Positions 1 to 48,919 of a stretch of DNA of 64,000 nt are shown here, in pieces (the stretch's first letter is position 1; each line of letters opens with the position of its first letter). This stretch comes from Polyangiales bacterium (GTDB lineage: Bacteria > Myxococcota_A > Polyangia > Polyangiales > Ga0077539). Under the pieces are notes generated by a model. It searched no databases. It saw only the letters and a list, made by a program, of their open reading frames with translations, and was not told where the DNA came from. A program made the translations under genes and the position numbers. Location: contig JAWKRC010000007.1 in assembly GCA_041389825.1 (NCBI GenBank), forward strand, positions 61,093-125,092. The letters are read 5' to 3'.

Positions 1-1338
1 CACCGCCGACGTGTTCTCTCTCGCGGTGATGACCGTCGAGCTCCTCACCAACACGCCGCTCCCCACGCCCGACGGCCGCGAGACCTGGGCCACGCGCGCG
101 CGGCAGCCCGGCGTCGACCTCGTGGCCGCGCTCGTCGCGCTGCGCGGAGACGTCCCCCGGGCGGTGTGGGAGGTGCTCGGCCGCTCGCTGTCGTCGTCTC
201 CGCGGGCGCGGCCGCAGAGCGTGCAGCAGCTCCAGCGCGCCCTGCGCGAGGCGTGGCAGTCGAGCGGCGAGTGGGACCGTTCGAGCGCGAACGACCCCGA
301 CCCCCCGATGCCCTCGGCCGTCCCCCCGCCGCCGCGCCCCGCGATGCCCGCGGGCTCCGCCGCGAGCGCGATCTCGGGCTGGCGCTCCGCCGAGCGCGTG
401 GCCGAGCCCACCGCCGCGCCAGTGAAGCCCGCGGTGCAGTACGGCGCCACGATGCGCACGCCGCGCGGGATGATCCCGACCGAGCACGCGCCCATCGAGA
501 CCCCCGCGTCACCGAGGGGCACCACGCCCGACCCCACCGAGTACGTGAACCTCGGCGCGCGAGCCTCTGGAGCGAGGGGCCTCCCACCGCGCACGAGGGC
601 ACGCAGGCCCTCGACCTCTCCGTCGCGCAGGCCCTCTTCGGCGAGTCGCTCCCCGACGACGCGCCGGTGTCCGAGGCCCCCGAGGTGGGCACGCAGGTGA
701 TGTCTCGGCCCTTCGCGCCCGCGCCGCAGCCGCCCGCGCCGCTCACCGAGCCGCCCCGCGACGTGCGCGAAGAGACGCGGGCCATCGACCTCGACACCGC
801 CTTCGACAACCTCGAGGGATCGCCGAGCGCGCACGAGTGGCGCGGCTCCATCGCGGGCGAGAGCGACCCCTTCTCGTCTCCGTCGACGGGTCAGGGCTAC
901 ACGCCCCTCACCACGATGAGCCCGCAGCGTGGCCCCGCGCCGCCGCCGTCGTACGAGCCGCCCTCGTACGAGCCCCCTCCGCCGCCGTCCTTCGACCCGC
1001 CGTCGGCGCCGCGCGTGTCGGCGACGCCCTTCGCGCCCGGGCCTCCGATGGCCCCGCCTGGCTATCCGCCGCGGAACTCTCCCGCGCCCGCGCAGCCGCA
1101 GCCCCCGCCTCCGCAGCGGGGAGGCTTCCCCGGCGACGACCCCTTCGCGCCGATGAAGACCATGGCGATGCCCACGTGGCAGACGCCGCCGCTGTCGCAG
1201 CCGTCTCCGCAGCCGCGCGCGTCGACGCCCACCGCGCCGCCGACCGAACCGACGCCCCGCTGGATGATCTACGCGGGCCTCGCGCTCCTGCTCATCATCC
1301 TCGCCGCTGGAGGGTTCCTCTACCTACGGCTTCGTTGA
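1..1338 (+). CDS. Ser/Thr protein kinase, C-terminal part. It is 5'-truncated by the window edge. It contains kinase subdomains IX-XI, a Pro-rich linker and a C-terminal TM anchor. The frame breaks at about nt 560-575.
   Basis: DVFSLAVMTVELLT (subdomain IX) lies at the window start. A Pro-rich PxxP/PPSYEPPSYEPPPPP linker and a terminal hydrophobic helix (LALLLIILAAGGFLYL) precede the stop at 1336-1338. Coding signal moves from the 11..700 frame to the 166..1338 frame near 560-575. Confidence 0.6.
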   Translation, partial: HRRRVLSRGDDRRAPHQHAAPHARRPRDLGHARAAARRRPRGRARRAARRRPPGGVGGARPLAVVVSAGAAAERAAAPARPARGVAVERRVGPFERERPRPPDALGRPPAAAPRDARGLRRERDLGLALRRARGRAHRRASEARGAVRRHDAHAARDDPDRARAHRDPRVTEGHHARPHRVREPRRASLWSEGPPTAHEGTQALDLSVAQALFGESLPDDAPVSEAPEVGTQVMSRPFAPAPQPPAPLTEPPRDVREETRAIDLDTAFDNLEGSPSAHEWRGSIAGESDPFSSPSTGQGYTPLTTMSPQRGPAPPPSYEPPSYEPPPPPSFDPPSAPRVSATPFAPGPPMAPPGYPPRNSPAPAQPQPPPPQRGGFPGDDPFAPMKTMAMPTWQTPPLSQPSPQPRASTPTAPPTEPTPRWMIYAGLALLLIILAAGGFLYLRLR

Positions 1339-1371
1339 TTGTCGCGCGCGGTCGTGGTGCCATCGGGCGCC

Positions 1372-1773
1372 ATGCCCCCGGCCGCGCGACTCGGAGACAA
1401 CCACGTCTGCCCCAAGGTCGAGCCCGGCCCCGTGCCTCACGTGGGCGGGCCCATCCTCCCTGGCTGCGAACCCACGGTGCTCATCGGCAACAAGCCCGCG
1501 GCGCGCGTGGGCGACAAGGCCCAGTGCAACGCGCCGCCCGACACCATCAAGATGGGCGCGCCCTCGGTGCTCATCGGCAACCAGCAGGCCGCGCGCATCG
1601 GAGACCCCACCGCGCACGGCGGCGTGATCGTCGCGGGCGAGTCCACCGTGCTCATCGGGACGACCGCCCAGGCCGCGGTGCTCCGTGCGGCGGCCGCGTC
1701 GGGCGCGCCCTTCTGCGAGGAGTGCGAGCGGGCGCGGGCGCGCATGGCCAGCGAGAGGTCCGCCGCAACGTGA
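1372..1773 (+). CDS. PAAR-domain protein (T6SS spike-tip family). The alternative start is TTG 1339, immediately after the kinase stop.
   Basis: Three PAAR motifs are present (PAARLGD, PAARVGD, AARIGD), spaced by VLIGN segments and conserved Cys/His. The stop TGA 1771-1773 overlaps the next gene's GTG (GTGA). Confidence 0.8.
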   Translation: MPPAARLGDNHVCPKVEPGPVPHVGGPILPGCEPTVLIGNKPAARVGDKAQCNAPPDTIKMGAPSVLIGNQQAARIGDPTAHGGVIVAGESTVLIGTTAQAAVLRAAAASGAPFCEECERARARMASERSAAT

Positions 1774-2318
1774 GCGAGGGCGACCGCGCCGCCGCGGTGG
1801 TCGAGCGACTTCGCGCCGAGGGAGAGGGCCTCTACGCGGTGCTCGACGCCGCCCGCGACGACCACGTGCTCGCGGCCATCTCCCGCTCGGGGGAGCGCTT
1901 CCGATCGCTCTACGAGGGCTGGCAGGGCGACGGCCTCGCCGACGTGGCCCCGTACCTCGTCGAGCTCCCCTCGGGCAGCGCCTTCGTCGATCGGCTGGTG
2001 CGCGAGGGCTGGGGCGAGTCGTGGGGGATCTTCCTCGTGACGCCCGAGGATTTCTTCTCCGTGCGACGTCACCTCCGGCGCTTCCTCCGCGTGGTCGACC
2101 ACGACGGCAAGCGCTTGCTCTTCCGCTACTACGACCCGCGGGTGATGCGCGCGTGGCTGCCCACCTGCACGCCCGACGAGACCCGCGCCTTCTTCGGGAG
2201 CGCCTCGGCCTTCATCACCGAGGGCCGCCGCGGAGCGACCTTCTTGCGCTTCACGCCTGGGCCCGAGGGGGCCGAGGTCGAGACCTTCCCACTGCCTGAC
2301 GAGAGCCCCGAGCCATGA
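1770..2318 (+). CDS. DUF4123-family protein (T6SS effector adaptor/chaperone, Tap/Tec-like).
   Basis: Carries LYAVLDAARD...ADVAPYLVEL...WG.FLVT...HLRRFLRV...LLFRYYDPRVMRAWLP...FFG signatures. GTG 1770 overlaps the PAAR stop. The stop overlaps the next ATG (ATGA at 2315-2318). Confidence 0.75.
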   Translation: MSEGDRAAAVVERLRAEGEGLYAVLDAARDDHVLAAISRSGERFRSLYEGWQGDGLADVAPYLVELPSGSAFVDRLVREGWGESWGIFLVTPEDFFSVRRHLRRFLRVVDHDGKRLLFRYYDPRVMRAWLPTCTPDETRAFFGSASAFITEGRRGATFLRFTPGPEGAEVETFPLPDESPEP

Positions 2319-3205
2319 CCGCGCTGTCGCTCCGCCTGACCATCCTCACCGGCCCGCACTCGGGCCACGTCGTCGACGTGCCCGCGGGCGCGCCCCGCAC
2401 CTTCGGCCGCGGCGCCGCGAGCGACGTGCAGCTCCTCGACGAGGCGATGTCCGAGGTGCACTTCGCGCTGCACCTCGACGACGCGGGCGCGGTGCAGGTG
2501 CGCGACCTCTCGGGCGGAGGCACCACGCTCAACGACCGCGGCGTGACCGACGGCGCCGCGCGCGACGGCGACCACCTCAGCGCGGGCGCGACGCGCTTCT
2601 CCATCGCGGTGGTGTCCTCCGACGGCCCCGTGGTCGAAGACGTCGACGAGCTCTCGCCCGAGCTGGTCGCCGCGGCGATGCAGCGGAGCGCGCCCGACTG
2701 CGCGCGCTGGGCGCTCCAGTCCGAAGACGGCTCGCACTACGCGCTGGTCGACGTGGCGAACGACCCCGAGCTCCTTCGCCTCTTCGAGGCGGGCGGCGAG
2801 AGCTACTGCGCCCTCGACGAGACCCGCGACCCCGACGACCTCGGCGAGACCGCCCCCGTGCTCGCCTACCTCCCCGTGGGGACGGAGTTCCTCGCGCAGG
2901 TCTTCGACGAGTGCTGGTCGATGGGCAACGCGGTCTTCTTCGCGAGCGACCGGCCCTTCATCGAGGTCTACGACCACGTCATCCGCCAGCTCACCTGGGA
3001 GGAGGACGGCCGCATCGGGGGCCTGCGCTTCTGGCTCCCGCGGGTGCTCGCGGCGCAGCTCCCGGGCACCGACGCCGAGCGCGCGGCGGCCTTCTTCGGT
3101 CCGGTGCGGGCGTTCCTCGTCGAGAGCGAAGACGGCCGCGAGGCGCTGCGCTTCTCGCTAGAGGGCGGGGCCGTGGTGCAGCGGCGGATCGCGCTGCAGC
3201 TCTGA
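2315..3205 (+). CDS. FHA domain fused to a second DUF4123 domain.
   Basis: N-terminal FHA signature (RTFGRG..SDVQL...HF.L......V.DLSGGGTTLN). The C-terminal half repeats the DUF4123 pattern (HYALVDVANDPELL...APVLAYLPVG...LRFWLPRVLAAQLP...FFGPVRAF). Confidence 0.75.
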   Translation: MTALSLRLTILTGPHSGHVVDVPAGAPRTFGRGAASDVQLLDEAMSEVHFALHLDDAGAVQVRDLSGGGTTLNDRGVTDGAARDGDHLSAGATRFSIAVVSSDGPVVEDVDELSPELVAAAMQRSAPDCARWALQSEDGSHYALVDVANDPELLRLFEAGGESYCALDETRDPDDLGETAPVLAYLPVGTEFLAQVFDECWSMGNAVFFASDRPFIEVYDHVIRQLTWEEDGRIGGLRFWLPRVLAAQLPGTDAERAAAFFGPVRAFLVESEDGREALRFSLEGGAVVQRRIALQL

Positions 3206-5325: not shown

Positions 5326-5366
5326 CGCCCCGCGCCGCGGCGCTTCGGGTAGCCTCGCGCTCGCGC

Positions 5367-5843: not shown

Positions 5844-5846
5844 CGC

Positions 5847-7537
5847 CTACGCGCTGCCGAGCGTGCCGAACCACCGCCGCGGCCCCTGCCGCACGACGCT
5901 CGCCGCCACCAGCAGCACCAAGAGCGCCGCGCTCACCCACTCCACGGGGGTGTGCGCGTGGCGCGCGAGGCCGTGGATCTCGGGCACGCTCCCCCGCGGG
6001 ATCAGCGCGTTGGCGACCCAGCCCGCCGCCGCGCCCACCAGCACCAGCACCACGGGCAGCGTGCGCGCCGCCCTCGGCCCCGCGTGCTCGCGGAAGGCTC
6101 CGATGGTCACGGGCCCGGAGCCCCCGGCCACCAGCACCCACGCGAGCGCCGCGCCCACCGACAGGCCCTTGTGCACCAGCACCGCCGCGACGGGCAGCGC
6201 CGCGAGGAGCCCGCTCGAACGCAACCCCCGCGAGCGCGCCCAGGAGCACGTCCCACCGGCCGCAGAGCGGCGCGAGGAGCGAGGGGTCGAGGGCCGCCTC
6301 GAGCACCGCCGCGGCCACGAAGCCGAGCGACAGCCGCAGCGCCGAGGTGTCGAGCCGGTCGTGCGCCGCGACCGTCGCGACCGGGCCGTCGCTCTCTTCT
6401 TCGTCGTGGTGGTGGTGATGGTGGTGGCCGTGGTCGTGGGTCACGCCCGTGTTCGCGGGCGCGCGGCGCTCCCTGCGCAGCGCGAGCGCGAGGCCCGCGG
6501 CGCCCACCGCCACCGCCGCGACCGCGGCCCCGGCGAAGCGCCATCCCCATCAATCGCGCGCCCAGCGTGAGCGACACCGGGTCGAGCGCGACCCGCGCCG
6601 CCGCCCACGCGCCGAGCGCCGCCACGGGGAGGCCCTCGCGCAGCATCCCGTGGAGGCCCTCGGGCTCGCGCAGCCCTCGCAAGGTCGACGCGAACAGGCC
6701 GTGCCCCGTCGTCGGCGCGACGCGGCGCAGGAGCGCGAGGAGCGCGACGCCCACGAGCACCGCGGGCGCGCACTCGACGAAGAGGGCCGTGAGCGCGTCG
6801 GCGGCGTTGAGCTCCGCGGCCTGCGAGCGCAGGAGCACGCTGTCGGGGTCGGGCACCCACACCACCAGCGCCGCGCCGAAGAGGAAGGCCGCGCCCGAGA
6901 GCGCGCGACCGCGCACCGTGGTGGGCGGCGGCGAGTGACTGTGCAGCACGAGCCGCAGGATCGCCCCCGCCGCGAGGGCCACCACCGCGTCGAGGAAGGC
7001 GTCAGGGACGTGCGTGAGGAGCAGCCGACCTCCGACGGCGCCGATCACCGTCGCGGCGCCCACGGCGCCGAGGCGGAGGGCCGTGCCGCGCCAGCCGAAG
7101 ATGGGCAGGAGCGCCGAGGTCATGAACAGCCCCTCGGGCAGCCGGTGCAGGAGCAGCGCCGCCACGAGGCCCGGACGGAAGCCCGCGCCCGACGAGGCCG
7201 TGGCCACCGCGAGGCCCGCGCCGTCGCTCAGCGCGTGCAGGGCGAGCGCGGGGACGACCACCTGCGCGCCCACGCGCGCGCCGCCGCGGTGGAGCTTGCG
7301 GTCGGCGCCCCAGAGGAGCGCGTAGCCCGCGAGCACGAGGAGGATGCCCGTCACGGCGCCGACGCCCTCGACGACGTGCGGCACGAGGCGCAGCGCGAGG
7401 ATGGTGGGCACCACGCCGAGGGTGAAGCCCTCGATGGCGGCGGAGGGCAGGGCGCGGCCGCGGCCGAGGGCGACCAGGGCGGGGCCCACCGCGAGGCCCG
7501 CCAGCGAGAGCGCCAGCGACGTGACGAGGAGGCTCAC
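5847..7537 (-). CDS. His-rich polytopic membrane transporter, ZupT/ZIP-like. It lies immediately downstream of the Zur-like regulator. The frame breaks at about 6535 and about 6235, so the model is stitched over three frames.
   Basis: LHRLPEGLF matches the ZIP TM4 HN.PEG motif. A HDHGHHHHHHHDEEESD tract is present. Coding-like segments lie in frames 7537-6540, 6548-6250 and 6224-5847. R/G-rich junk follows in each abandoned frame. Confidence 0.4.
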
Positions 7538-11971: not shown

Positions 11972-12277
11972 TCACGGGGCGCGGCGCTGCTTGCGCTGGA
12001 GCGAGGCGATGCGGGCGTCGATGGCGTCGAGGCGCGTGGTGCGAAAGGCCCGGTCGAGCAGGCGAGAGCCGATGAAGAGGAAGGCCACCGCGAAGAGGAA
12101 GCCCCACTGCCGCGGCAGGCCGACGGCTTCTTGCAGGAGCACGCCGAGGCCGAGGCCCAGGCCGAAGGCGGCGAGGGTCACGGGGATGAGCACGTTGGTG
12201 CGGTGGGCCTCCCACCAGGTGATGCGCTTGAAGAGGCGCTCGCGCTCGTCGCGCAGGCGGGAGAGTTCGTCGTCCAT
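11972..12277 (-). CDS. Small membrane protein (N-terminal coiled segment plus two TM helices).
   Basis: 101 aa. Coding-like codon usage. Hydrophobic segments are VLIPVTLAAFGLGLGLGVLL and FLFAVAFLFIG. Confidence 0.55.
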   Translation of the reverse strand: MDDELSRLRDERERLFKRITWWEAHRTNVLIPVTLAAFGLGLGLGVLLQEAVGLPRQWGFLFAVAFLFIGSRLLDRAFRTTRLDAIDARIASLQRKQRRAP

Positions 12278-12323
12278 CGCGTCGTGGCCTTCGGGGCCGC
12301 GAGCATAGGCGCGCTCGGGGGGA

Positions 12324-13634
12324 TCAGCGAGCGCGGTCGATGCACCGCCGGGTGCTCTGCCCCGCGGCGTTGGCGAGGGCCCCCGCGGGCCACGCGAGCA
12401 CGAAGTTGAAGCACATCTCGTCTTCGGTGCGCTCGCCGAAGAAGACCGTCGCGCTGCTGACGTTGTCGTAGCGGCAGACCGTGCGGAGGCGGTCTCCGGG
12501 CATGATGACCAGGTCGGAGGGTCGGCTCACCTGCGCGTCGAAGGAGTAGTCGGTGACGTCGGTGAGCGTGTCCATCCGGGCGGCGGAGCCTCCGCGGTGG
12601 ACCTCGCTGCGCAGGGCCGTCCCGTTGCGGTGCATGTGCGCGGTCGACCCGAGCACGTGGATGGGCTCGGTGGCGGCGGGCGTGCACCAGCCCTCGGTCT
12701 CGTAGCCCGTCGACCGCGGAGGGATCGCGATGTTGAGCGTGCCGAGCCAGTGGACGGCCGCGGTGTGCGGGCGGGGCGCGTCGGTGGTGCACATCTCGAT
12801 GCCGCTCGCGTCGTCGGCCGCGTCGAGGGTGTTGTTCCAGTAGTGGGTCTGGAGGATGAACCACTCGCCCTCGCCGGGGAGCTCGAGGCCCACGTCGGAG
12901 GGGAGCACCGTGCCCTGGTTGCCGGGCGCCCATCCCGCGATGAAGCGCGCGTCGCGGGGCATGTTGCCGTCGCAGTCGAAGACCTCTCCCGCGGCGGGGC
13001 GAGACGCGGTGGAGAAGAGGATGAGGTGGTGCAGCACCCTGGCGTTGTCGACGCGCGCGGCGAAGGCCGTGGCCTGCTGCGCGCCGCGGAAGGGCGACTG
13101 GAACGCGAAGCAGCGGTTGAGGTTCCCCGCGGCGCCGGGGACGGTGTAGCGGTCGGCGACGGTGGGGCCGTGCGCGAGGAAGGCGCGGCGCTCGCTCGGC
13201 GCGCAGGGGAGCCGGTCGGCGGGGCTCTCGACCGCGTCGGGCCCCGTCATGCTCCCGCAGTCGGAGCCCGTACAGCCGGGCGCGCCCGCGGCGATCCAGC
13301 GGTCGAAGGTCGCGAGGTCAGCCTCGGACAAGCGCGCGGGCGGCATCGGCCGCACGGGGTCGTGGACGCGCTCGCCCATGAGGTTCCACACCTGCCGGGC
13401 GGGGGCGCTCGCGGCGGGACGTCGCGTGTCGTCCCATCGGGCGAGCGACATCGGCGCGCCGTAGCGCGGCGTGGCCGCGTGGCACGAGACGCAGTTGCCC
13501 TCGATGATCCGCGCGATCTCGAGCGGGTACGACATCCCGCTGCCGGGGTCGGTCGGCGCCGCGCCGTCGCCCGAGCAGCCCAGGGTGGTCGACGCCGCGA
13601 GCACGATCGCGGCGCGGAGGAAATCGTTTCGCAT
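12324..13634 (-). CDS. Lipoprotein combining a c-type heme motif with a copper type II ascorbate-dependent monooxygenase-like (PHM/DBH-like) domain.
   Basis: The signal is MRNDFLRAAIVLAASTTLGC (lipobox). A CVSCH (CxxCH) motif is present. The CuH-like site is HH...(63 aa)...H (VLHHLILF ... LQTHYW). The CuM-like site is HMH...(about 75 aa)...M in a DEMCF context (cf. PHM DEMCN). Confidence 0.7.
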   Translation of the reverse strand: MRNDFLRAAIVLAASTTLGCSGDGAAPTDPGSGMSYPLEIARIIEGNCVSCHAATPRYGAPMSLARWDDTRRPAASAPARQVWNLMGERVHDPVRPMPPARLSEADLATFDRWIAAGAPGCTGSDCGSMTGPDAVESPADRLPCAPSERRAFLAHGPTVADRYTVPGAAGNLNRCFAFQSPFRGAQQATAFAARVDNARVLHHLILFSTASRPAAGEVFDCDGNMPRDARFIAGWAPGNQGTVLPSDVGLELPGEGEWFILQTHYWNNTLDAADDASGIEMCTTDAPRPHTAAVHWLGTLNIAIPPRSTGYETEGWCTPAATEPIHVLGSTAHMHRNGTALRSEVHRGGSAARMDTLTDVTDYSFDAQVSRPSDLVIMPGDRLRTVCRYDNVSSATVFFGERTEDEMCFNFVLAWPAGALANAAGQSTRRCIDRAR

Positions 13635-13660
13635 CGTCGGCCTCATGGGTGAAGGGGGCG

Positions 13661-14320
13661 TCATTGCACGCGGCGAAGGTCGAAGATCAGCGCGGCCTGG
13701 AGCGGGGCCGCGCCGAGGTAGACGAAGAGCCGCGCGCGGTCGGCCGCGTCGCGGGAGAAGGCGAAGCCCGAGGGGCCGGCCATCGCGCCCATGCCGAGGG
13801 TGCCGCTCATCGTGGTGCACTCGGGGGTGAGGGTGAGGCGCTCGCCCTGCACGGTGAACGCGCCGCGGCCGCCGAGGCGCGAGGGCCGCGGCACGGGCCC
13901 GGCCATGACGGTGTTCACGCGGATCACCAGGTCGGAGAGGAGCCGATAGCGACCGGCGGAGAAGTCTCCCCACGCGACGCCGCTGAGCTCGGAGCCGCTC
14001 TCGTCGAGCTGACCGCGCGCGACCTCGGGGAACCACAGGGTCGCCCCGTCGGCCACCCAGCGCCCCTCGGGGTCGCCGCCCGAGGGCGTGGGGATCACGG
14101 CGCCTGCGTCTCCGCCCGCGATGCGGACCGCGCCCGTGAAGGTGGGCGTGGTGGGCGGATCGCCGAGGTCGCACGCGGCGGCGTCGGCGCCCGCGTCGGT
14201 CTCGGCCGCGACGTCGCTCGCGACGTCAGTGAGGGCGCCCGCGTCGGAGGGCGCGTTGGAGTCGTCGCCGCACGCGCCGAGGAGGAGCGCGAGAGGAACC
14301 CACCGAACGGATCGCGTCAC
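13661..14320 (-). CDS. Lipoprotein of unknown function, directly upstream of the Cu-monooxygenase-like gene.
   Basis: The GTG start gives VTRSVRWVPLALLLGACGDD (lipobox). About 220 aa. The upstream part of the ORF is Arg-rich junk. Confidence 0.55.
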   Translation of the reverse strand: MTRSVRWVPLALLLGACGDDSNAPSDAGALTDVASDVAAETDAGADAAACDLGDPPTTPTFTGAVRIAGGDAGAVIPTPSGGDPEGRWVADGATLWFPEVARGQLDESGSELSGVAWGDFSAGRYRLLSDLVIRVNTVMAGPVPRPSRLGGRGAFTVQGERLTLTPECTTMSGTLGMGAMAGPSGFAFSRDAADRARLFVYLGAAPLQAALIFDLRRVQ

Positions 14321-14477
14321 GCGGAGGGTGTTACCAAGAGTCGGGCCGACGCGCGTGGGGCGAGCGCGCGGCACTGACGGCGCGAGGGGCGCTGTCGACG
14401 GCAGGCCGCAGGTGTCGCGCGCGGTGCTCGGGGCTGAGGGGTGGAAGACCCGGCGCGGTGGCCCTACGGTCGCGCGT

Positions 14478-15365
14478 ATGACGAGGCGGGTGCTGGTCGC
14501 GGGCGCGTCGGGCGCGCTCGGTCGACGGGTGACCCTCGCGGCGCGCGCCGCGGGGTGGGCGGTGCGGGCCCTGGTGCGTGACCCGGCGAGGCTGCGCGAC
14601 GCCGCCGACGCGGTGGACGAGGTGCGCCAGGGAGACGCGCTGAGGCCCGACACCCTCGCGGGGCTCTGCGACGGGGTCGACGCGGTGTTCTCCTGCGTGG
14701 GCGCGTCGGTGTCGGGCGAGCTCGGCGCGGGGCGGGCGACCTACCGCGACGTGGACATCCCCGCGAACGCGAACCTCATCGCCGAGGCGAAGCGCGCGGG
14801 GGTCGGCCGCTTCGTCTACACCGCCGTCTGGAACCGCGACCCGGCCGTCGCCGCGACCGCGTACGTCTCCGCGCACGACGCCGTGGTCGACGCGTTGCGC
14901 GCGAGCGGGCTGTCGTACTCCGCGATCCGCCCGGTGGGCTTCTTCTCGATCTACGACCAGATCCTCGCGATGATCGCCGCGGGCAAGCCCGTGCCCCTCG
15001 TCGGAGACGGCTCGCCCCGCACCAACCCCGTGAGCGACGACGACCTGGGCGAGCTCGCCGTGCGGCTCCTCGACGGCGGCGACCCGGAGGTCGACGCGGG
15101 CGGGCCCGAGACCCTCACCCGCGCGGAGATCCTCGACCGCTGCTTCGGCGCGCTCGACAGACCCTCGAAGCCCCTCAAGATGCCCGCCTGGGCGATGCGC
15201 GCGTCGGCGGTGGCCCTGTGGCCCATCAGCCCGCGCATGGCCGACTTCACCCGCTTCGTCGCCGAGGTCTACACCCGCGACGTGATCGCGCCCTCCGTCG
15301 GAGAGCGCGGACTCGACGACCACCTCGCGGCGGCGGCCGCGCGGATCAAGAGCTCACGCGGGTAG
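14478..15365 (+). CDS. NAD(P)-binding NmrA/SDR-family protein.
   Basis: Carries VLVAGASGALGRRV (GxxGxxG Rossmann motif). 295 aa. Confidence 0.8.
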   Translation: MTRRVLVAGASGALGRRVTLAARAAGWAVRALVRDPARLRDAADAVDEVRQGDALRPDTLAGLCDGVDAVFSCVGASVSGELGAGRATYRDVDIPANANLIAEAKRAGVGRFVYTAVWNRDPAVAATAYVSAHDAVVDALRASGLSYSAIRPVGFFSIYDQILAMIAAGKPVPLVGDGSPRTNPVSDDDLGELAVRLLDGGDPEVDAGGPETLTRAEILDRCFGALDRPSKPLKMPAWAMRASAVALWPISPRMADFTRFVAEVYTRDVIAPSVGERGLDDHLAAAAARIKSSRG

Positions 15366-39517: not shown

Positions 39518-39620
39518 GGGTCTCGGGCGCGGTCGCGTCCGCGCAGGTCCGCGGGCGGCGAGGGGTTGACGTCGGGGTGCATCGCGAGAAGCTTGGGCCT
39601 TCTTACAGGAGGCTTCGCTT

Positions 39621-41186
39621 ATGGGAACCAGAGGGGATGTCTTCGCGCGGGCGCGCGCCGTCGTGCCGGTGCTGTTCTTCGCGTGGCTCGGGGTGATGGC
39701 CCTCGCGTGTGGCGGCGGCGCCACGATGGGAGAGCGCGCCCCAGGCCGTGACAAATACGTCGAGCCCGGCGCCTTCGGCACCCGAGACGACGCCGGGGTG
39801 CTCTACAACGGCGACGCCGCGGTGTTCACCGACGCGGGCGGCTTCAACCCCGCGGCGGCCTCGCTGGGCGCCATCGCCGTCGACGATCGCGACGAGGCGG
39901 CGTTCGTGATGCAGGCCTTCCCGATCACCGAGGGGATCGTCGACGGGGGCTGGGGGCGGGAGAACCGCACGCTCTGGCGTGTCCGACCCGATGGCGAGGT
40001 CCGCGAGGTCGGGCGCTTCGATGACTCCCGCGACGCGCGCGTCCTCTTCCCGTCCTCCGGCGTGCTGGTGATGACCGAGCCCACCGGAGGCGCGTGCGTC
40101 GACGCGGACTGCGAGCAGCTCAGGCTGTACGAGCGCGGCTCGCTGCGAGAGCTCGCCCGACGGGACGTCCCCTTGCGCTACCACGGCACCCGGATGTCAG
40201 GGACCCGACGCTACATCGCCGTCGCTGACAACACCGCCGAGCACGCTCCGATCCACATCATCGACGCGCTCACCCTGGAATCTCACGTCATCCCGCACGG
40301 CGGCGACTGGCTCGAGGCCATGTGGCTCAACCGCTCCGACCGGCTGCTCGCGGTCGTCTTCGACGACCGCGGCGCGCGCATCCTCGCGTGGGACGTCCCG
40401 CTCCTCGCGAACCACGGCTTCGCCGTCGAAGACCAGGTCTGGGCGCGCCCCTCCCTCGACCTTCGCGTGCCCGGCGTGAGCGCCGACGGGTACTTCTCCT
40501 ACACCTGGGTCGGCGTCAGCCCCGACGACCGCTACGCGGTGTTCCCAGTGCTCGCCGATGTCAGCGACGCGGGGGTCTTCGAGTCGACGCACCGACTCCT
40601 CGTGCTCGACTTGCTCGAGGGCTCCCTGCGAACGGTGAACGACGCCCGTGGCCCGGTCGGCTTCACGCCCGACGGGAGCACCATCGTCTCGTACCGCGCG
40701 AACCCCGCGCCGATCCTCGGCCCCGACCGAGGAGGCCCGGCGTCGCTCGTCCTCATCGACGCGCGGAGCCTCGAGTCCGAGGTGATCACCCTCCCCTTCG
40801 AGAAGGGCCGGGTGCCGACATTCTTCGTCACTCGCGAGGGGCACCGCGTCGCCGTCACCGATAACGGTCGCGAGCTGGTGCTCTACGACCTGGAAATGCG
40901 TCGGCTCACCCGCGTCGAGGGAGACGCCTCGTGGCTCGGCGAGTTCGTCTCGCGCCTCGGCCACAACGAGCTCTACCTCCTCGACGACGGCCTTCACCGC
41001 CTCGACCTCAGCGCCGAGACCCTCTCTCGCGTCACCCTCGACTGGACCCCGCGGCACATCAACATCCTCCCCGCGCGCGACCAGCTCGTGCTCGACCGCC
41101 CCGGCGAGAACGCCCTCTCCTTCTGGGACCTCTCCACGCAGTCGCTCTCGCGCACCGTGACGCTCCCCGTGCCGACGCCGCGCTGA
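39621..41186 (+). CDS. Lipoprotein of unknown function (beta-propeller-like).
   Basis: The signal and lipobox are VLFFAWLGVMALACGG. 521 aa. Coding-like. Confidence 0.7.
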   Translation: MGTRGDVFARARAVVPVLFFAWLGVMALACGGGATMGERAPGRDKYVEPGAFGTRDDAGVLYNGDAAVFTDAGGFNPAAASLGAIAVDDRDEAAFVMQAFPITEGIVDGGWGRENRTLWRVRPDGEVREVGRFDDSRDARVLFPSSGVLVMTEPTGGACVDADCEQLRLYERGSLRELARRDVPLRYHGTRMSGTRRYIAVADNTAEHAPIHIIDALTLESHVIPHGGDWLEAMWLNRSDRLLAVVFDDRGARILAWDVPLLANHGFAVEDQVWARPSLDLRVPGVSADGYFSYTWVGVSPDDRYAVFPVLADVSDAGVFESTHRLLVLDLLEGSLRTVNDARGPVGFTPDGSTIVSYRANPAPILGPDRGGPASLVLIDARSLESEVITLPFEKGRVPTFFVTREGHRVAVTDNGRELVLYDLEMRRLTRVEGDASWLGEFVSRLGHNELYLLDDGLHRLDLSAETLSRVTLDWTPRHINILPARDQLVLDRPGENALSFWDLSTQSLSRTVTLPVPTPR

Positions 41187-41235
41187 GCCGCGCGGCTTGA
41201 CACCCCTCGCCCCGGGCTCCGACCCTTCACCCTCG

Positions 41236-42894
41236 ATGCGCGCTCGCCGCCCCGTCGCCCGCCTCGCCCTCGCGTCGGTCGCGCTCCTCGCGGGCTGCTA
41301 CGGCGGAGACCCGCAGACCCTCGGCACCACCGCCTCCGAGATCCACCAGTTCTGCGCGGCGCGCACCGAGGTGCGCGGCATCGACGTGTCGCAGTGGCAA
41401 GGCGCGATCCAGTGGTCGCGCCTCCCCGGCGCGGGCGTGCGCTTCGCGATCATCCGCCTGTCGAACAACATGTCGCTCGACACGCGCTTCAACGAGAACT
41501 GGGCGGGCGCGCGCGCGGCGGGCGTGCTCCGCGGCGCGTACCACTATTTCAACCCCACCACCTCGGCGACGGGGCAGGCCAACTTCTTCGTCGACCGACT
41601 GCTCGCGCAGGGCTTCGGCGACGGAGACCTCCCGCCGATGCTCGACGTCGAGTACGCCAACGTCGACTCGAACGGCGACGGGGTGAACGACCGACCGTCG
41701 GTCACGGGCGCGGCGTACCAGGCCGCGATCCGCGCGTGGGTGAACGTGATCCGCGCCCGCCTCGGCCGCGAGCCCATCATCTACACGGGCGGCTACTACT
41801 GGGACTCGTGGGTGCAGTCCGCGGAGTGGGCCGCGAACCCGCTCTTTCACGCCGAGTACCCGAACTACTCCACGCGCCGTAGCTGGAGCGACCCCGTCCC
41901 GAACTCGGGCTGCGCGCGCTACGTGAGCAATTCGTGGCCTCGCTACACCTTCTGGCAGTACGCGGGCGACAACACCCTCGCCTCGTCGCTCGGCGGCGCG
42001 GGCACCTTCGGCTCCACCGCCGTCGACATGGACGTCTTCGACGGCACCCTCGCCGACCTCCAGGCCCTCGCCCACGTCACCCCGCGCCTCGACGCGCGCT
42101 TCGTGGGTCAGTCCACCGACGCGGCGCCCGAGACCGACGGCAGCGGGCAGCAGTTCCACGTCTGCACAGGGCAGCGCATCGCGTTCGAGTTCGAGGTCGA
42201 GAACACGGGCTCGGCCGCGTGGCTCGACGCGGCCACCATGAGCGACCAGTGGGGCCGCTCGGTCCGCCTCGGGACCGTCCCTCACGACACGCCCGACCCG
42301 CTCAACGGCCTGGCGCGCGTGTCGCTCAACACCACGGCCAACCACGACGTGCGCCCCGACGGCGGCGCCTGCAACGACCGCGACGGGTGCCGCCGCGCGC
42401 GCTTCACCCTCACGGGCACCGCGCCGTCGGCGCCGGGCACCGTGCGCACCCGATGGCAGCTCGTCGACGAGCTCCGCGCGTGGTTCGGGCCCGAGATGTG
42501 GTTGTCGTTTCACGTCGTCGACTGCCCCCGCGACGCGGGCGTGGTGGACGCAGGCCCGCGCGACGCGGGGGCTTCGGTCGACGTCCCCGCCACGCGGGAC
42601 GTCGTCGCGGTCGACGTGAGCGCGACGCGCGATGTCTCCGCGGTCGATGTCGCGACCCGCGACGTCTCCACGGTGCGTGACGTTGGCCCCGTCGACGCCG
42701 GGGCGACGGACCTCGACGCGCGCGTCACGCTCGACGGCGCCGTCGACGACGAGGGAGAGCTCGCCTTCGACGCGACCCTCCACGGGAGCTGCGACGCCCG
42801 CCCGCGAGGGACGCGCGGCGGCGCGTGGATGGTCGGCCTGCTCGCGGTCGCGGCGCTCTCGCGTCGTCGCGTCAGGCGAGCTTCGCGGCCTTGA
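41236..42894 (+). CDS. GH25-family muramidase (lysozyme) lipoprotein with a C-terminal MYXO-CTERM anchor.
   Basis: LLAGCYGG lipobox. GIDVSQWQG, GVRFAIIRLS, GAYHYF and DVEY are GH25 signatures. The C-terminus is [32 protein letters not shown]. Confidence 0.85.
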   Translation: MRARRPVARLALASVALLAGCYGGDPQTLGTTASEIHQFCAARTEVRGIDVSQWQGAIQWSRLPGAGVRFAIIRLSNNMSLDTRFNENWAGARAAGVLRGAYHYFNPTTSATGQANFFVDRLLAQGFGDGDLPPMLDVEYANVDSNGDGVNDRPSVTGAAYQAAIRAWVNVIRARLGREPIIYTGGYYWDSWVQSAEWAANPLFHAEYPNYSTRRSWSDPVPNSGCARYVSNSWPRYTFWQYAGDNTLASSLGGAGTFGSTAVDMDVFDGTLADLQALAHVTPRLDARFVGQSTDAAPETDGSGQQFHVCTGQRIAFEFEVENTGSAAWLDAATMSDQWGRSVRLGTVPHDTPDPLNGLARVSLNTTANHDVRPDGGACNDRDGCRRARFTLTGTAPSAPGTVRTRWQLVDELRAWFGPEMWLSFHVVDCPRDAGVVDAGPRDAGASVDVPATRDVVAVDVSATRDVSAVDVATRDVSTVRDVGPVDAGATDLDARVTLDGAVDDEGELAFDATLHGSCDARPRGTRGGAWMVGLLAVAALSRRRVRRASRP

Positions 42895-44065
42895 TCCGTC
42901 GGAGGAGCGCCGAGGTCTTCGACAGCGACGACACGACCGCGTCGAGCCGCGACTGGAACTCCGCGAGCTCTCCGTCGCGCTCCGCCAGCGCGCGAAGGTC
43001 GAGGAGCGTCTCGACCATCTCGTCGTACGCCTTGGCCTTCGCCTCGCCGACGAGCCTCGCGAGCCTCCGCCACGTCTCGTCGACCTTCGGCGCGAGCGCG
43101 TCGAGCCGCCTCGCCCTCGCTTCCTCCGCGGCCCGCCTCGCCTCCTCCGCGGCGCGCTGCGCCTCCGCCACCTCTGCGACCTGTCGCTCTCGCGCGAGCT
43201 CGGCGGCCCGAGCGACGAGCTCTCCCACCGTGCGGCGGCGCGGGCTCACCTCTCCGTCGAGCGCGAAGGTCGCCGCGAAGGACCGCGCGATCTCGGCCTC
43301 CACCGCCGCGCCCTCACCCGCGGCGACGCGGGCGAGCCACGCGTCCTTCTCCTCCGTCGGCCGCGCGGCGATCCACGCGCGCACGTCGTCGGGGCGCGTG
43401 CGCGGGTCGACGATGTCCGCGCTCACCTCGATGGCGCTTTCATAGAGGTCACGGTCGACCATGAAGAAATCGAGGAACACGCTGTCCTCCGCGAGCCTTC
43501 GGCGAAGCCCCGGGGGCACCGGAGGCTCGAAGCGTCGGTCCTCTTCGCCCCGCTCCTCCTCGTCGAGGTCGTCGTCCTCAGCCTCCCCGACCTCGACGGC
43601 GAGGCTCGCGAGCCACAGGACGTAGAGCGGCCCGAGGTCGCCCCTGAGCACCCGCGCGCGCATCGCCGCCAGCGCGTTCACGCAGTCTTCGACCTCGGAC
43701 TCCTCCAGCCAGTCGTTGAGCCAGTCTTCCTGCAGCGAGAAGGTCACGACCGCGTCGTCGCGGGTGCGCACGCAGCGGATCAGGTCGTCGTCGACGTAGG
43801 GGGCGATCGCGGCGTCAGCGACGGCCGCGCGAGGGAGCCGGAGCGCCACCGAGCGCACCCCGTAGCTCGCCGCGTAGGCGTGGACGTCGAAGTACTTCTG
43901 GACGAGCGCCAGCGGGTCTCCGCGGAAGTCGCCGTAGCTGTAGGTGAACACCACCCGGGGGCCCGAGAGGGTGACGCGCGACGAAAGCCTCCCGAGCGCC
44001 TCGCGGGCCTCGGTCGTGAGCGGCCGGTCCACCGTGACGAACTGGTAGACCTGGAACGAGCTCAC
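42872..44065 (-). CDS. Hypothetical protein. It has an N-terminal globular domain, an acidic linker and a C-terminal coiled coil.
   Basis: 397 aa, intact, [16 protein letters not shown]. It overlaps the GH25 gene 3' end convergently by about 20 nt. Confidence 0.6.
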
Positions 44066-44081
44066 GACCGCCCCCCGCGCG

Positions 44082-45179
44082 CTACTGGATCGACTGCTGC
44101 TTGGCCTGTTCGATCTGCTCGTACTCGCGCTCGAAGAGCACGCGCTGGTCGGTGACGATCTGCAGGTTGCGGGTGTTCTGCTCGGTGGGCTCGGCGCGGC
44201 CGAGGTCGCGCATCTGTCGACCGATCTCGGCGAGCGCGTCGCAGATGTTGGTGAGCGTCTCGAGGTTGCGGGTCTTGCGGTCCTGCCCCGCGAAGTTCTT
44301 GCGGTACTCCTCGAAGACCTCGTTGGCCGCGCCGCCGAGCATCCCCTGGAGGTCGGCGAAGCGCGTGCCCTCGCGCGCCTTGCGGATCTCTTCGAGCTCG
44401 GTCTTGTAGGTGCCGAGGCTCTGGGTCACCACGTCGATGTTCTGCAGGTGCCAGTCGTCGCGCAGCCCGCCGTCGCGCAGCGCGATCATCCGGTCGAGCA
44501 CCTGCTGGAGGCTGTCGACCATGCGCTGGATGAGCCCGGGACGACGCGTCTGCCGCGCCTTGCCCGCGAACTGCGCCTCGTAGATCTTGAACTGGCCGTT
44601 GGCCACCTCACCGAGGGTGCCGGCCTGCTCCGCCACGGTGCCCATCGCGCGCGCCTCGATGATCTCGCCGCGCTCGGCGCGGTACATCTTCAGGTTCTCG
44701 CGCACCACGTCGAGGTCCTGCTGCGCGCCCACGTCCGAGGGGAGGCCCGGCGCGAGCTCGGCCATCGCCTCTTCGATGGACTCCAGGTCGTCGATCATCT
44801 CGGCGAGGAGCCCGAGGTCGCGGGTGTTGCGCGCCTGCCCCGCGAAGTGCCGGTGGTACTTCGCGAAGGTGAGGTTCGCCTCGGTGCGGAGCTGCGAGAA
44901 GTCTTCGAAGTCGGCGCCGAGGCCCTTGGCCTGCTGGATCGCCTGACGCTCGCCCTGGTAGAGCGCGAGCGCGTCGCGGGCCGTCGTCTCGAGGTCGGTG
45001 CGGTCCTTCGAGCGCGGGAGCTTCTCGAGGTCGCCGAGCGCGCGGCGCGTGCGCTGGATGAGGTCGTCGAGGTCGGAGACGTCTCGGGTGACGCGGGAGT
45101 GGCCCGCGAAGCGGGCGTCGTAGGCCTGGGAGAGCTGGTCGAGCTCCAGTCGGATCTGCGCGAGCGTTCGGTTCGCCAT
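44082..45179 (-). CDS. Repeat protein of unknown function: four about 90-aa repeats with a (F/Y)..(Y/F)...FAG..R.TR core.
   Basis: Repeat starts are ARFAGHSRVTRD, RHFAGQARNTRD, AQFAGKARQTRR and KNFAGQDRKTRN, each followed by a helical segment. Confidence 0.65.
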   Translation of the reverse strand: MANRTLAQIRLELDQLSQAYDARFAGHSRVTRDVSDLDDLIQRTRRALGDLEKLPRSKDRTDLETTARDALALYQGERQAIQQAKGLGADFEDFSQLRTEANLTFAKYHRHFAGQARNTRDLGLLAEMIDDLESIEEAMAELAPGLPSDVGAQQDLDVVRENLKMYRAERGEIIEARAMGTVAEQAGTLGEVANGQFKIYEAQFAGKARQTRRPGLIQRMVDSLQQVLDRMIALRDGGLRDDWHLQNIDVVTQSLGTYKTELEEIRKAREGTRFADLQGMLGGAANEVFEEYRKNFAGQDRKTRNLETLTNICDALAEIGRQMRDLGRAEPTEQNTRNLQIVTDQRVLFEREYEQIEQAKQQSIQ

Positions 45180-45192
45180 AGGGGCGCGGACG

Positions 45193-45861
45193 CTACCGCC
45201 AACCCATCCCGTGGAGCAAACCCCTCAAGCGCCCGCGCACCCCTCGCCCGAAGTTCTTCGGCCGCTCCTCCGTCTCGCCCGCGGGCCTGAAGGCCACGTT
45301 GTTGAACGCCTCGGGGAAGCACGCCGTGATGCGGCCATAGAACTCACGGATGCGCGCCGCGTCGGCGTCGAGGTCGCCCGTCGGGTGGATCAGCGGCCCC
45401 ACGCCCCCGCGCTTGCGCCGGTAGTCGAGGTACCCGAGCGCGATGGGCACGTCGGCGGTCTTCGCGATCCAGTAGAAGCCCGTCTTCCAGTACTGCCGCT
45501 TCGAGCGCGTGCCCTCGGGGGCGATGACCAGGATCACCCGCTCCTTCGAGCGGATGTAGTCGGCCATCTGCTGCACCTGGTCCTTCGACTGCCGACGGTC
45601 GACGGGCACGCCGCCCAGCCGTCGGTAGAAGCCCCCGAGCGGGCCCTCGAAGAGCGTGTGCTTGCCGATCCACACGATCTCGAGGCCCGTGACCCACCCG
45701 ATCCCCAGGGTGATCGGCAGGTCCCAGTTCGACGTGTGCGGCGCCGCGATCAGCACGTAGCGGGGCGCGTCGGGGAGCACCCCCTCCTCGCGCCACCCCA
45801 GCGCCGAGAGCACCACACGACCGATCCAGTACTGCACCCGCGACGGCTTGATGGGATCCAT
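45193..45861 (-). CDS. 1-acyl-sn-glycerol-3-phosphate acyltransferase (PlsC family).
   Basis: AAPHTSNWD (HxxxxD) and APEGTRS motifs are present. Confidence 0.8.
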   Translation of the reverse strand: MDPIKPSRVQYWIGRVVLSALGWREEGVLPDAPRYVLIAAPHTSNWDLPITLGIGWVTGLEIVWIGKHTLFEGPLGGFYRRLGGVPVDRRQSKDQVQQMADYIRSKERVILVIAPEGTRSKRQYWKTGFYWIAKTADVPIALGYLDYRRKRGGVGPLIHPTGDLDADAARIREFYGRITACFPEAFNNVAFRPAGETEERPKNFGRGVRGRLRGLLHGMGWR

Positions 45862-46438: not shown

Positions 46439-47390
46439 TCTCGCGGGCGAAGACGCGGAGCGCGGCGGCGGTGGCCCTCTCGCTCCTCCTCGCGGGCGGC
46501 GCGGCCGGCGCGCAGTCCGCGCGGGAGACCTACGCCCGCGGTCTGGAGTCGTTCCGCAGCCAGCGCTACGCCGAGGCCCTCCTCGCGTTCGAGTCGTCGT
46601 ACCGCGCCGAGCCTCGCCCCGAGGTGCTCTACAACATCGGCCTCGTGCAGCGCGCGCTGGGCCGCTACCTCGACGCGATCGACTCGTGGGAGCGCTTCCT
46701 CGCGGGCGACACGTCGAGCGTCGGCGCGGCGGTCACGCAGCAAGCGCGCGACGGCGTGACGGCGATGCGGTCGATGGTGGCGACGGTGACGCTCCGCGCG
46801 CAGCCCGAGTGCGAGGAGGTGCTCGTCGACGGCCGCCCCGCGCGGGTCGAGTCGAGCGCGATCCGCGTCGACCCAGGTCAGCGTGTGCTGGAGTGCCGCG
46901 CCGCGGGCCACGCGCCCTCTCGGCAGGACCTCCGCCTCGGACTGGGTGAGCGCCGCGAGGTCGTCCTCGCCCTGCGCCCGCTCACCGCCGCGTTGACCAC
47001 CGACCCGCGGAGGGTCGCCGACCCGCAGGGAGTGCCGCCGACCCGCGCTCCCGCGAGGGCGGGTCTGCCGTGGTGGACGTGGGGCGGCGTGGGCCTGACC
47101 GTCCTCGCGACGGGCGCCGCCGTCGGCCTCGGCCTCGCGGCGCAGTCGTCGGAGTCGACTACCTCTCGCGCTGCGTCGACCAACGCCCGCCCGAGGCGGG
47201 GTGCGCCGCGCTCCAGGGAGAGCGCCAGTCCGAGCTCGACGGCATGGCGCTCGGCGTGAATCTCTTGTGGGGCGCGGCGGCGGTCGGCGCCGCCATCGCG
47301 ATCACGGGCGTGGTGGTGGGCGTCACGCGTCGCCCCGCGTCGCGGGTCGCGATCTCACCCGGCGGGCGCGGGCTGGAGGTCCGGTGGTGA
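46435..47390 (+). CDS. Exported TPR-like / PEGA-domain protein with a C-terminal TM segment. The frame breaks near 47140.
   Basis: GTG overlapping the previous stop. A signal peptide is present. [20 protein letters not shown] (TPR-like). A PEGA-like beta segment is present. A TM helix is present. The C-terminus ...[13 protein letters not shown] continues in a neighbouring frame. Confidence 0.5.
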
Positions 47391-48919
47391 AGCGGTGGCC
47401 GCTCGCGGTCTCCCTCTGCGCGGGCTGCGCGTTCACGCTCCCTCCGCCGTCGTCGCGCGACCTCGACGCCAGCGCTGACGGCGCGGTCTCCCTCGACGTG
47501 GGCGGGCGCGACGTCGTGCCTCTCGACGCGGGCAGCGACCTCGGCCCGATGGACGCGGGCACGGACACGGGCGCGACCGACGCGGCGGCCGACGACGCGA
47601 TCGCGGACGCGGGCGTCGCGGATGTCTCTGCGATCGACGTCGACCGAGAGGAAGCGAGCGCTCCCGACGTCTCACCGAGCGACTCCGGGCCGAGCGACGT
47701 CGGCGAGGTCGACGCGGGCCCCACGGACGTCAGCGAGGTCGACGCGGGGACGTTGGACGTCGGTGAGGTCGACGCTGGTCCCGCCGACGCGGGTCCTGCC
47801 GACAGCGGGCCGACGCCCATCACGGTCGTCGATGTCGACGCGGGCGACGACTTCACCTGCGCGGTCCTCTCGAACGGAGGTCTCTACTGCTGGGGTCACA
47901 ACAACGAGCGTCAGCTCGGCGTCGGCGACGCGACCGACCGTTCGCGCCCCACGCTCGTCACGTCGAGCGAGGCCTTCGTGCGCGTGAGCGCGGGCGGCCA
48001 GCACGGGTGCGCGATCACCGCCAGCGGCGCCCTCTGGTGCTGGGGTCGCAACAACCGCGGTCAGGTCGGCGACGGCACGTTGATGACCCGCGCGACGCCG
48101 GTGCGAGTGTTCACGTCGGGCGTCACCAGCGTCTCCGCGGGCGGGGAGCACACCTGCGCGGTGATGGACGCTCACGTCTACTGCTGGGGCAAGGGCGACT
48201 CCGGCCAGGTCGGGGACGGCCTCGTCACCGACCAGACCTCTCCCACGCTCGTGAGCGCGTTCACCGCGCTCGACGTCTCCGCGGGCGAGGCGCACTCCTG
48301 CGCGCGGGTGACCGGCGTGACGGGGTGCACGGGCTCCCCGGCGTCGCTCCTCTGCTGGGGGAAGAACGACCGCTCGCAGGTCGGCGCCGGGACGCTCGCC
48401 ACGTACAACTCGCCCACCCCCATCGCGCCCGCGGGCACCTACTGCCACAGCGTTCGGAGCGTGAGCGCGAACCGCAACAACACCTGCGCGGCCTGGAACG
48501 ACACGCTCTACTGCTGGGGCGAGAACGGCGACGGACAGCTCGGGATCGGCAACACCACCGAGTCGCTCCCCACGGCGGTGAGCTTCGGCGCCGGAGCGAG
48601 CGTGAGCCAGCCCACCCCGTCGGTCGGCGGGATGTTCGCCTTCGCCATGGTCACCGAGGCCGGGATCGTCCGCGCCTGGAGCTGGGGAAAGAACATGGAA
48701 GGTCAGCTCGCCATCGGCGCCACCGGCGCGGACCAGCCCTCTCCCGGCCGCGCGACAGGCCTCGCCTCGCTCAACGTCGTGCAGCTCTCGGCCGGCGCGA
48801 ACCACGCGTGCGCCCGCGACGCGACCGGTTCGCTCTACTGCTGGGGCGCTGGCGGCAGCGGCCGGCTCGGCACCGGGTCCGCGACGAACAGCGCCGTCCC
48901 CACGCGCGTGTCGTTCTGA
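47384..48919 (+). CDS. RCC1-repeat (beta-propeller) lipoprotein with an acidic DVxEVDAGP N-terminal repeat region.
   Basis: LCAGC lipobox. Repeated YCWG.N..GQLG / LWCWGRNNRGQVG blades. Confidence 0.8.
   Translation: MVKRWPLAVSLCAGCAFTLPPPSSRDLDASADGAVSLDVGGRDVVPLDAGSDLGPMDAGTDTGATDAAADDAIADAGVADVSAIDVDREEASAPDVSPSDSGPSDVGEVDAGPTDVSEVDAGTLDVGEVDAGPADAGPADSGPTPITVVDVDAGDDFTCAVLSNGGLYCWGHNNERQLGVGDATDRSRPTLVTSSEAFVRVSAGGQHGCAITASGALWCWGRNNRGQVGDGTLMTRATPVRVFTSGVTSVSAGGEHTCAVMDAHVYCWGKGDSGQVGDGLVTDQTSPTLVSAFTALDVSAGEAHSCARVTGVTGCTGSPASLLCWGKNDRSQVGAGTLATYNSPTPIAPAGTYCHSVRSVSANRNNTCAAWNDTLYCWGENGDGQLGIGNTTESLPTAVSFGAGASVSQPTPSVGGMFAFAMVTEAGIVRAWSWGKNMEGQLAIGATGADQPSPGRATGLASLNVVQLSAGANHACARDATGSLYCWGAGGSGRLGTGSATNSAVPTRVSF

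Follow-up and report, generated by a model that had tools for sequence, protein, structure and literature searches.

Do two genes that lie 16 nucleotides (nt) apart on the same strand form a functional pair? The question is raised by two adjacent genes, here called A and B, in a 64,000-nt stretch of contig JAWKRC010000007.1 from a Polyangiales bacterium metagenome-assembled genome (MAG). This whole stretch of DNA, ~74% G+C, is referred to below as the window. A sequence-only reading of it, made without database searches, had proposed that A and B constitute a two-gene operon. We found that the A–B pair is not conserved and that B is a 1.2-kb accessory cassette in a variable slot; the reading as a two-gene functional operon is wrong. 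The features on which this result depends are given here, with the open reading frames (ORFs) of A and B described by their G+C content at third codon positions (GC3) and isoelectric points (pI).

44082..45179, minus strand: gene A, an ORF with GC3 of 0.96 encoding a soluble, acidic protein of 365 residues (pI 5.2)
42872..44065, minus strand: gene B, an ORF with GC3 of 0.93 encoding a soluble, acidic protein of 397 residues (pI 4.8)
45193..45861, minus strand: PlsC-like acyltransferase (PF01553, E = 7.9e-12); start codon approximate
41197..42894, plus strand: GH25 muramidase (PF01183, E = 4.9e-33), convergent with B and overlapping it by 23 nt at the 3′ ends
42843..44078, no strand assigned: variable cassette, essentially gene B alone, where synteny with the closest relative breaks

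Both ORFs proved to lie at the coordinates given by the sequence-only reading. They are co-directional on the minus strand, and their GC3 values indicate that both are real coding genes of native composition. Exact protein matches for A and B carry the locus tags R3A52_05445 and R3A52_05440. The order on the minus strand is acyltransferase, a 13-nt gap, A, the 16-nt gap and B.

We assembled 80 A loci from a scan of 185,579 species genomes, and 87 B loci comprising the best 80 of 546 confirmed in a metagenome scan and 7 others. None of the 80 A loci carries B (tblastn), and A is missing from all 87 B loci. Among the loci examined, A and B adjoin only in the window genome, and the conserved gene neighbourhood for which the sequence-only reading had suggested looking is not kept across the A loci. 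The two families also differ in phyletic range.

The closest relative, locus L001, is the most informative case. Its A protein is 94% identical to that of the window, and the acyltransferase and GH25 genes are syntenic. Nucleotide homology between the two loci (blastn) ends at 44079, inside the stop codon of A, and resumes at 42842. In the slot that B occupies in the window, L001 has a 2.7-kb XhoI-type restriction–modification pair on the opposite strand (L001:2041-4523), consisting of an XhoI-family endonuclease (PF04555, E = 2.5e-82) and an Eco57I (PF07669)/TaqI_C-type methyltransferase. Because this pair sits exactly at the place of B, the stretch from A to the GH25 gene is a strain-variable hotspot. 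The last ~17 codons of the GH25 gene differ between the window (42843..42894) and L001 (L001:4545-4584), so the 3′ tail of that gene was included in the swapped cassette. No junction repeats or mobility signatures above the high-GC background flank the B cassette.

Protein A consists of four tandem repeats of about 90 residues, each with an FAGxxRxTR core.

44913..45179, minus strand: repeat 1, residues 1–89, with FAGHSRVTR at 45084..45110
44637..44912, minus strand: repeat 2, residues 90–181, with FAGQARNTR at 44820..44846
44361..44636, minus strand: repeat 3, residues 182–273, with FAGKARQTR at 44544..44570
44085..44360, minus strand: repeat 4, residues 274–365, with FAGQDRKTR at 44268..44294

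The FAG triplets begin at residues 24, 112, 204 and 296 (spacing 88/92/92), and the core is present in all four repeats, preceded by (F/Y)..Y. We cut an alignment of 59 A homologs into the four repeats and compared them profile against profile by hhalign. Pairwise probabilities of 98.2–99.6% and E values of 4e-14 to 2e-24 indicate that the repeats are homologous and not just alike in composition. An AlphaFold2 model built on the 59-homolog alignment (predicted local distance difference test (pLDDT) score of 92.6, predicted template modelling (pTM) score of 0.81) has 12 helices, which are predicted to form four three-helix units with breaks of 3–4 residues between them; DSSP places the non-helical breaks in the model at residues 86–88, 178–181 and 271–273. 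The conserved motif (F/Y)..Y...FAG..R.TR covers the last part of helix 1 and the loop that leads into helix 2. Conservation is concentrated in helix 1 and loop 1, and a conserved Y..E..EI..A is found towards the C terminus of helix 3. No hydrophobic segment was found in A. The sequence-only reading had recognized the repeats, their core and the helices that follow it, and the hhalign homology and the predicted bundles agree with it.

The A family is narrow. When 1.84 billion representative proteins were searched exhaustively with an A profile, 407 clusters (50% identity) were returned at E < 0.001, 243 of them below 1e-30. Mean column identity in A is 57%. Nearly all of the matches listed are 345–390 residues long and align in a single stretch across all four repeats, and no informative fusion of A was found among the family matches. 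The sole apparent fusion, P0370 (667 residues), is without a Pfam domain and is probably a gene-call merge. A 366-residue gene downstream of A in locus L086 was tested as a paralog and is not one. Apart from a few obviously mislabelled bins, the 80 A loci are labelled as Myxococcota or as unresolved delta-proteobacterial MAGs; the carriers are MAGs labelled Polyangia or Bradymonadia, and every named source is an uncultured member of the Myxococcota.

A lies among housekeeping genes, which change as the loci diverge. The acyltransferase lies 13–15 nt upstream of A in the closest clade, in 18 of 80 loci by tblastn and 14 by gene-call clustering. It is the only neighbour conserved in that nearest clade, and the link is lost outside it. 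A second clade has an arrangement that parallels it: a CGFS monothiol glutaredoxin precedes A in six loci, with gaps of 15 nt in L034, L035 and L039 and of −3 to 160 nt in L041, L054 and L074. In L034 (~5040-5985) this glutaredoxin is fused to a rhodanese domain. Elsewhere A adjoins genes for a transglutaminase-like protein, malic enzyme or 2-amino-3-ketobutyrate ligase; no pst or pho genes were found nearby in the contexts of the A loci.

A and B had been described as intact amid many disrupted neighbours, which was taken to suggest selection. Locally this is not borne out: each of the four closest ORFs is intact, and three have clear Pfam domains (acyltransferase, peptidyl-prolyl isomerase (PPIase) and GH25 muramidase), the fourth being a 521-residue ORF described below. 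Nor is A under special selection, since its ratio of nonsynonymous to synonymous substitution (dN/dS) against L001 is 0.22, the same as that of the acyltransferase (0.21) and the GH25 gene (0.28). A is under ordinary purifying selection, not set apart from its neighbours by dN/dS. On the MAG contigs of L085 and L086, the genes for carbamoyl-phosphate synthase (L085:2234-5581) and citrate synthase (L086:1504-2800) are each split into three adjacent gene calls. These splits look like the frameshift errors typical of long-read assemblies, and they counsel caution in calling 'disrupted genes' in such MAGs pseudogenes. Another feature of the window also sets it apart from L001.

39621..41186, plus strand: ORF of 521 residues without a Pfam match, absent from the otherwise syntenic L001

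It is a second insertion relative to L001, in which window positions 39544..41186 are matched by ~30 nt, and it lies only a few kilobases from B. On the other side of the locus, a plus-strand ORF of 572 residues (47201..48919) resembles by eye an RCC1-type beta-propeller over its C-terminal two-thirds, with WGxNxxGQLG-like motifs; N-terminal to this part is a low-complexity region rich in Asp, Ala, Gly and Val.

Protein B has a different build from A, with the following parts.

43712..44065, minus strand: N-terminal alpha/beta domain, residues 1–118, beta-rich over residues 1–112
43538..43585, minus strand: acidic linker of 16 residues (161–176), where pLDDT dips to 83
43505..43528, minus strand: conserved EPPVPPGL, following the acidic linker
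42887..43228, minus strand: C-terminal helical part, a 62-residue helix (residues 280–341) followed by three shorter helices (344–393)

In the AlphaFold2 model of B (pLDDT 93.5), the predicted order is N-terminal domain, helical hairpin, acidic stretch, EPPVPPGL, helical middle region, 62-residue helix and three short helices. The compact N-terminal domain and acidic linker named by the sequence-only reading are accurate, and its C-terminal coiled coil corresponds to the helical part predicted here. The family consensus of the N-terminal domain reads MSEYQYYEF...YGDFRGDP...ANWGTR..RLPR. Most of the residues that never vary in the family are aromatic or aliphatic, with R30, D60 and D143 as the only polar ones, and there is no obvious catalytic motif; B is therefore probably not an enzyme.

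Far more widespread than A, the B family is one in which the window protein is an outlier. A full-length search returned 167 clusters, the best match besides the window's own protein being 40% identical; homologs are 30–40% identical to the window B. Named sources are Singulisphaera, Gemmata, Streptomyces, Saccharopolyspora, Herbihabitans, Archangium and two Chloroflexota MAGs, and the phyla named are Planctomycetota, Actinomycetota, Chloroflexota and Myxococcota. With the N-terminal domain as the profile, 3,389 clusters were retrieved, and 0 of the 120 listed carry a Pfam domain. The window B differs from the family at 8 of its 56 highly conserved positions, where the median member differs at 1. 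P0122, the closest relative of the window B, diverges just as much (8/56), and no CcbP-like match was found in the P0122 locus (L084).

The first eight B contexts were heterogeneous, with a hint of defence genes. Neighbours in B loci include a Dpd island; MmeI restriction–modification, SNF2, UvrD and GmrSD genes; an AAA_15/21 ATPase; and an Mrr-like nuclease. Further loci have DrmD/DpdE-like SNF2 helicases. Two partners recur. A small gene (~105–180 codons) lies immediately upstream of B on the same strand in 31 of 87 loci (tblastn), often overlapping the B start by 4 nt (ATGA-type); its product matches PF11535 (CcbP) at 28.8–32.2 bits, against a gathering score of 21.5. A protein of ~800 residues, in which the AEP-TOTE domain (PF22548, 'TOTE conflict system, Archaeo-Eukaryotic Primase domain', E = 1e-77 to 1e-95) is fused to an SF2 helicase, is encoded near B in 9 of 87 loci. 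Five of these loci are arranged helicase, CcbP-like gene, B (L121:760-4682, L157:3631-7645, L123:2787-7520, L150:3322-8145 and L145:166-3217), and the helicase genes of these three-gene arrays carry PF22548 plus ResIII/DEAD/Helicase_C. Both partners are absent from the 80 A loci that served as a control (CcbP-like 0/80, Fisher p = 7.5e-11; AEP-TOTE 0/80, p = 0.003), a comparison with flanks of A, which come from different and narrower taxa and are not matched random genes. The L157 locus has two more helicase-like genes of the same blastp cluster within 17 kb (617..3013 and 12006..14714), which an AEP domain probe left unmatched.

Across the whole 64-kb window, neither the CcbP-like protein nor AEP-TOTE (two helicase queries) gave a tblastn match at E < 0.1. 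The window B is a divergent, partner-less orphan of a widespread uncharacterized family. A close same-strand upstream gene is present in 33 of 76 B loci, belonging to several different families. In Streptomyces mayteni (L083:9629-9997) and Herbihabitans rhizosphaerae (L090:9654-9989), another small protein of 111–122 residues is encoded 4–12 nt upstream of B; the two are 77% identical and have no Pfam match. Clustering found this actinobacterial protein in only 5 of 87 B loci, including relatives in L114, L124 and L146, and this recurrence indicates that the small upstream gene paired with B varies from clade to clade. Directly downstream of B, 1.2–1.7 kb are without a called gene in Singulisphaera (L081:11173-12856) and Streptomyces (L083:11161-12387).

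Searches against known families placed neither protein, as the sequence-only reading had found by inspection. When the window proteins and all alignment members were compared with Pfam, NCBIfam, PADLOC and PHROGs (hmmscan), there was no significant match, and PDB sequences likewise gave nothing meaningful for single sequences, full-length profiles or a merged single-repeat profile. What the PDB search yielded were designed coiled coils and a chance sigma-factor segment (E = 0.02). DASH_Dad4 matched 32 of 59 A members weakly, which we judged compositional; other A matches in the library scans were weak and of coiled-coil type. PADLOC-DB v2 returned nothing for B and, for A, only GajA at E = 0.0075, with no single stretch passing alone. 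Comparison of the B model with viral structures (Foldseek, BFVD) gave nothing below E = 0.05, and a scan of viral contigs for B found none. Profile searches assigned neither protein to a well-characterized family, so the result that the sequence-only reading had named as its refutation did not arise; judged by sequence, A and B each belong to no described protein family.

We think it rather likely that the locus juxtaposes two unrelated genes, a lineage core scaffold (A) and an accessory conflict-system adaptor (B). Gene A would be a core gene passed down vertically within a Myxococcota lineage that is represented solely by MAGs, and its product would be cytoplasmic and built of four homologous three-helix bundles. 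Bundles of this kind have the loop between helices 1 and 2 at the same end as the C terminus of helix 3. Because loop 1 of A would share an end with the helix-3 C terminus leading into the next repeat, the RxTR Arg and the helix-3 Glu may be placed so that together they cap or latch every junction between repeats. Such a latch would fix the orientation of the bundles, consistent with the pTM of 0.81, and A would be a rigid, non-enzymatic scaffold or adaptor.

Gene B, for its part, is an accessory insertion set exactly between the A stop codon and the GH25 3′ end. Members of its family normally pair closely with a CcbP-like protein and, at some loci, follow an AEP-TOTE primase–helicase. Since it has no obvious catalytic motif and its invariant residues are mostly aromatic or aliphatic, B may serve conflict (defence) modules as a non-enzymatic subunit, acting as adaptor or sensor. 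In the window it would be an orphan, probably transcribed by read-through from A. It is possible, though we advance this tentatively, that B and the CcbP-like protein make up an undescribed sensor/adaptor conflict module with AEP-TOTE, with B also occurring as a stand-alone or orphan gene in defence hotspots like the A–GH25 slot, and that A represents a new Myxococcota-restricted family of Arg-loop scaffolds with a part in the particular cell biology of that lineage.

Alternatives exist for the pair and for each protein. A and B, or the acyltransferase, A and B, could form a genuine lineage-specific operon, A having acquired B as a partner only in this strain. The genes share one orientation and are separated by just 13 and 16 nt, a G-run resembling a Shine–Dalgarno sequence precedes the B start, a promoter and terminator scan (of low information at 72% GC) found no terminator-like site between A and B, and B is often the downstream member of a tight pair in its own family (33/76 loci). 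Yet we regard such an operon as very unlikely, given co-occurrence of 0/80 and 0/87, the different phyletic ranges, and the 94%-identical A of L001, which works without B and with an opposite-strand restriction–modification pair in the slot; moreover, A shares nothing with the usual CcbP-like partner of B. For B itself, the alternative is that it has an everyday housekeeping or regulatory role in soil bacteria with large genomes and lies close to defence genes by coincidence. Several B loci do lie among metabolic genes, B has native composition, and no PADLOC, PHROG or viral match was found. We nevertheless find this doubtful, because the gene has a patchy distribution over the phyla and the nearest relative lacks it, its slot is used by a restriction–modification module in L001, and it recurs beside AEP-TOTE primase–helicases (a conflict system as named by Pfam) and DrmD/DpdE-like SNF2 helicases.

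The main rival to the latch reading of A is that its Arg loops bind anions. A would then be a ligand-binding regulator, the RxTR loop and the N terminus of helix 2 in each bundle forming an anion-binding site by a logic analogous to that of PhoU and SPX. Candidate anions could be phosphate, polyphosphate, a phospholipid head group or a nucleic-acid backbone, and there could be a tie to the upstream lysophospholipid-type acyltransferase. However, that gene's link to A is lost outside one clade, SPX and PhoU score no better than designed bundles or spectrin repeats at sequence identities below 10%, the conserved residues of A differ from the PhoU metal-binding motifs and the SPX Lys/Tyr cluster, and the Arg residues are explicable by salt bridges to the helix-3 Glu. 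We judge a ligand-binding A unlikely. That A is a BAG-like co-chaperone, an Hsp70 nucleotide-exchange factor of four BAG-type bundles, strikes us as scarcely credible. The A repeats and the BAG domain share a three-helix bundle of about 80–110 residues, but A gives no Pfam or profile match to the BAG family. BAG domains contact Hsp70 through residues on helices 2 and 3; the conservation of A is strongest in helix 1 and loop 1.

Several points weigh against our account of two unrelated genes with these roles. The acyltransferase–A and glutaredoxin–A pairings, with their gaps of 13–15 nt, might mean a functional link, and the 16-nt spacing is compatible with co-transcription and a lineage-specific A–B link. 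The latch is drawn from general bundle topology and predicted secondary structure, its Arg–Glu contacts being putative, and the roles given to both proteins come from sequence, models and gene context. For B, over half of the loci are without a CcbP-like or TOTE neighbour, several contexts are of ordinary metabolic genes, no PADLOC model matches it, it was absent from the viral contigs scanned, and the partner control was drawn from A flanks, as described above.

The lesson of the locus is that close spacing in one genome is not evidence of a functional pair. If A is a structural or regulatory hub, it would serve as a lineage marker and as a way into the cell biology of uncultured Polyangia and Bradymonadia, groups of predatory or social bacteria. 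The B family matters more broadly: it comprises >3,000 clusters, its named members come from four or more phyla, and Pfam, NCBIfam and PADLOC have no entry for it; its function, once shown, would add a component to the TOTE conflict system. The link between B, the CcbP-like protein and AEP-TOTE is a more useful by-product than the A–B locus itself.

Set against known systems, B is tied to TOTE by association only: its homologs lie within a few kilobases of an AEP-TOTE helicase in 9 of 87 loci, five with conserved order, whereas most B loci are without the helicase and the window has neither an AEP-TOTE nor a CcbP-like gene. We call TOTE a conflict system on the sole basis of the Pfam description of PF22548; searches of the accessible literature, on TOTE composition and more generally, found no relevant paper. 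The likeness to CcbP, the Ca2+-binding protein of Anabaena (PF11535), belongs to the usual partner of B and not to B, and calcium binding by that partner is putative. As for A, PhoU is recognized by a profile match and two bundles with acidic metal-binding motifs, and SPX by a Lys/Tyr surface. Neither the PhoU profile match nor its paired bundles and motifs are found in A, whose scores against both families are indistinguishable from those of generic bundles and which conserves Arg and Thr in a loop instead. BAG domains are single bundles, whereas spectrin and plakin repeats, as tandem three-helix-bundle proteins, are a close known kind to A. ANC1_spectrin matched 5 of 59 A members weakly (best E = 0.0014) and the window A not at all, and the continuous helix that joins spectrin repeats is replaced in the A model by predicted breaks of 3–4 residues (DSSP on the AlphaFold2 model). 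Both families are undescribed in sequence, with familiar structural or contextual themes.

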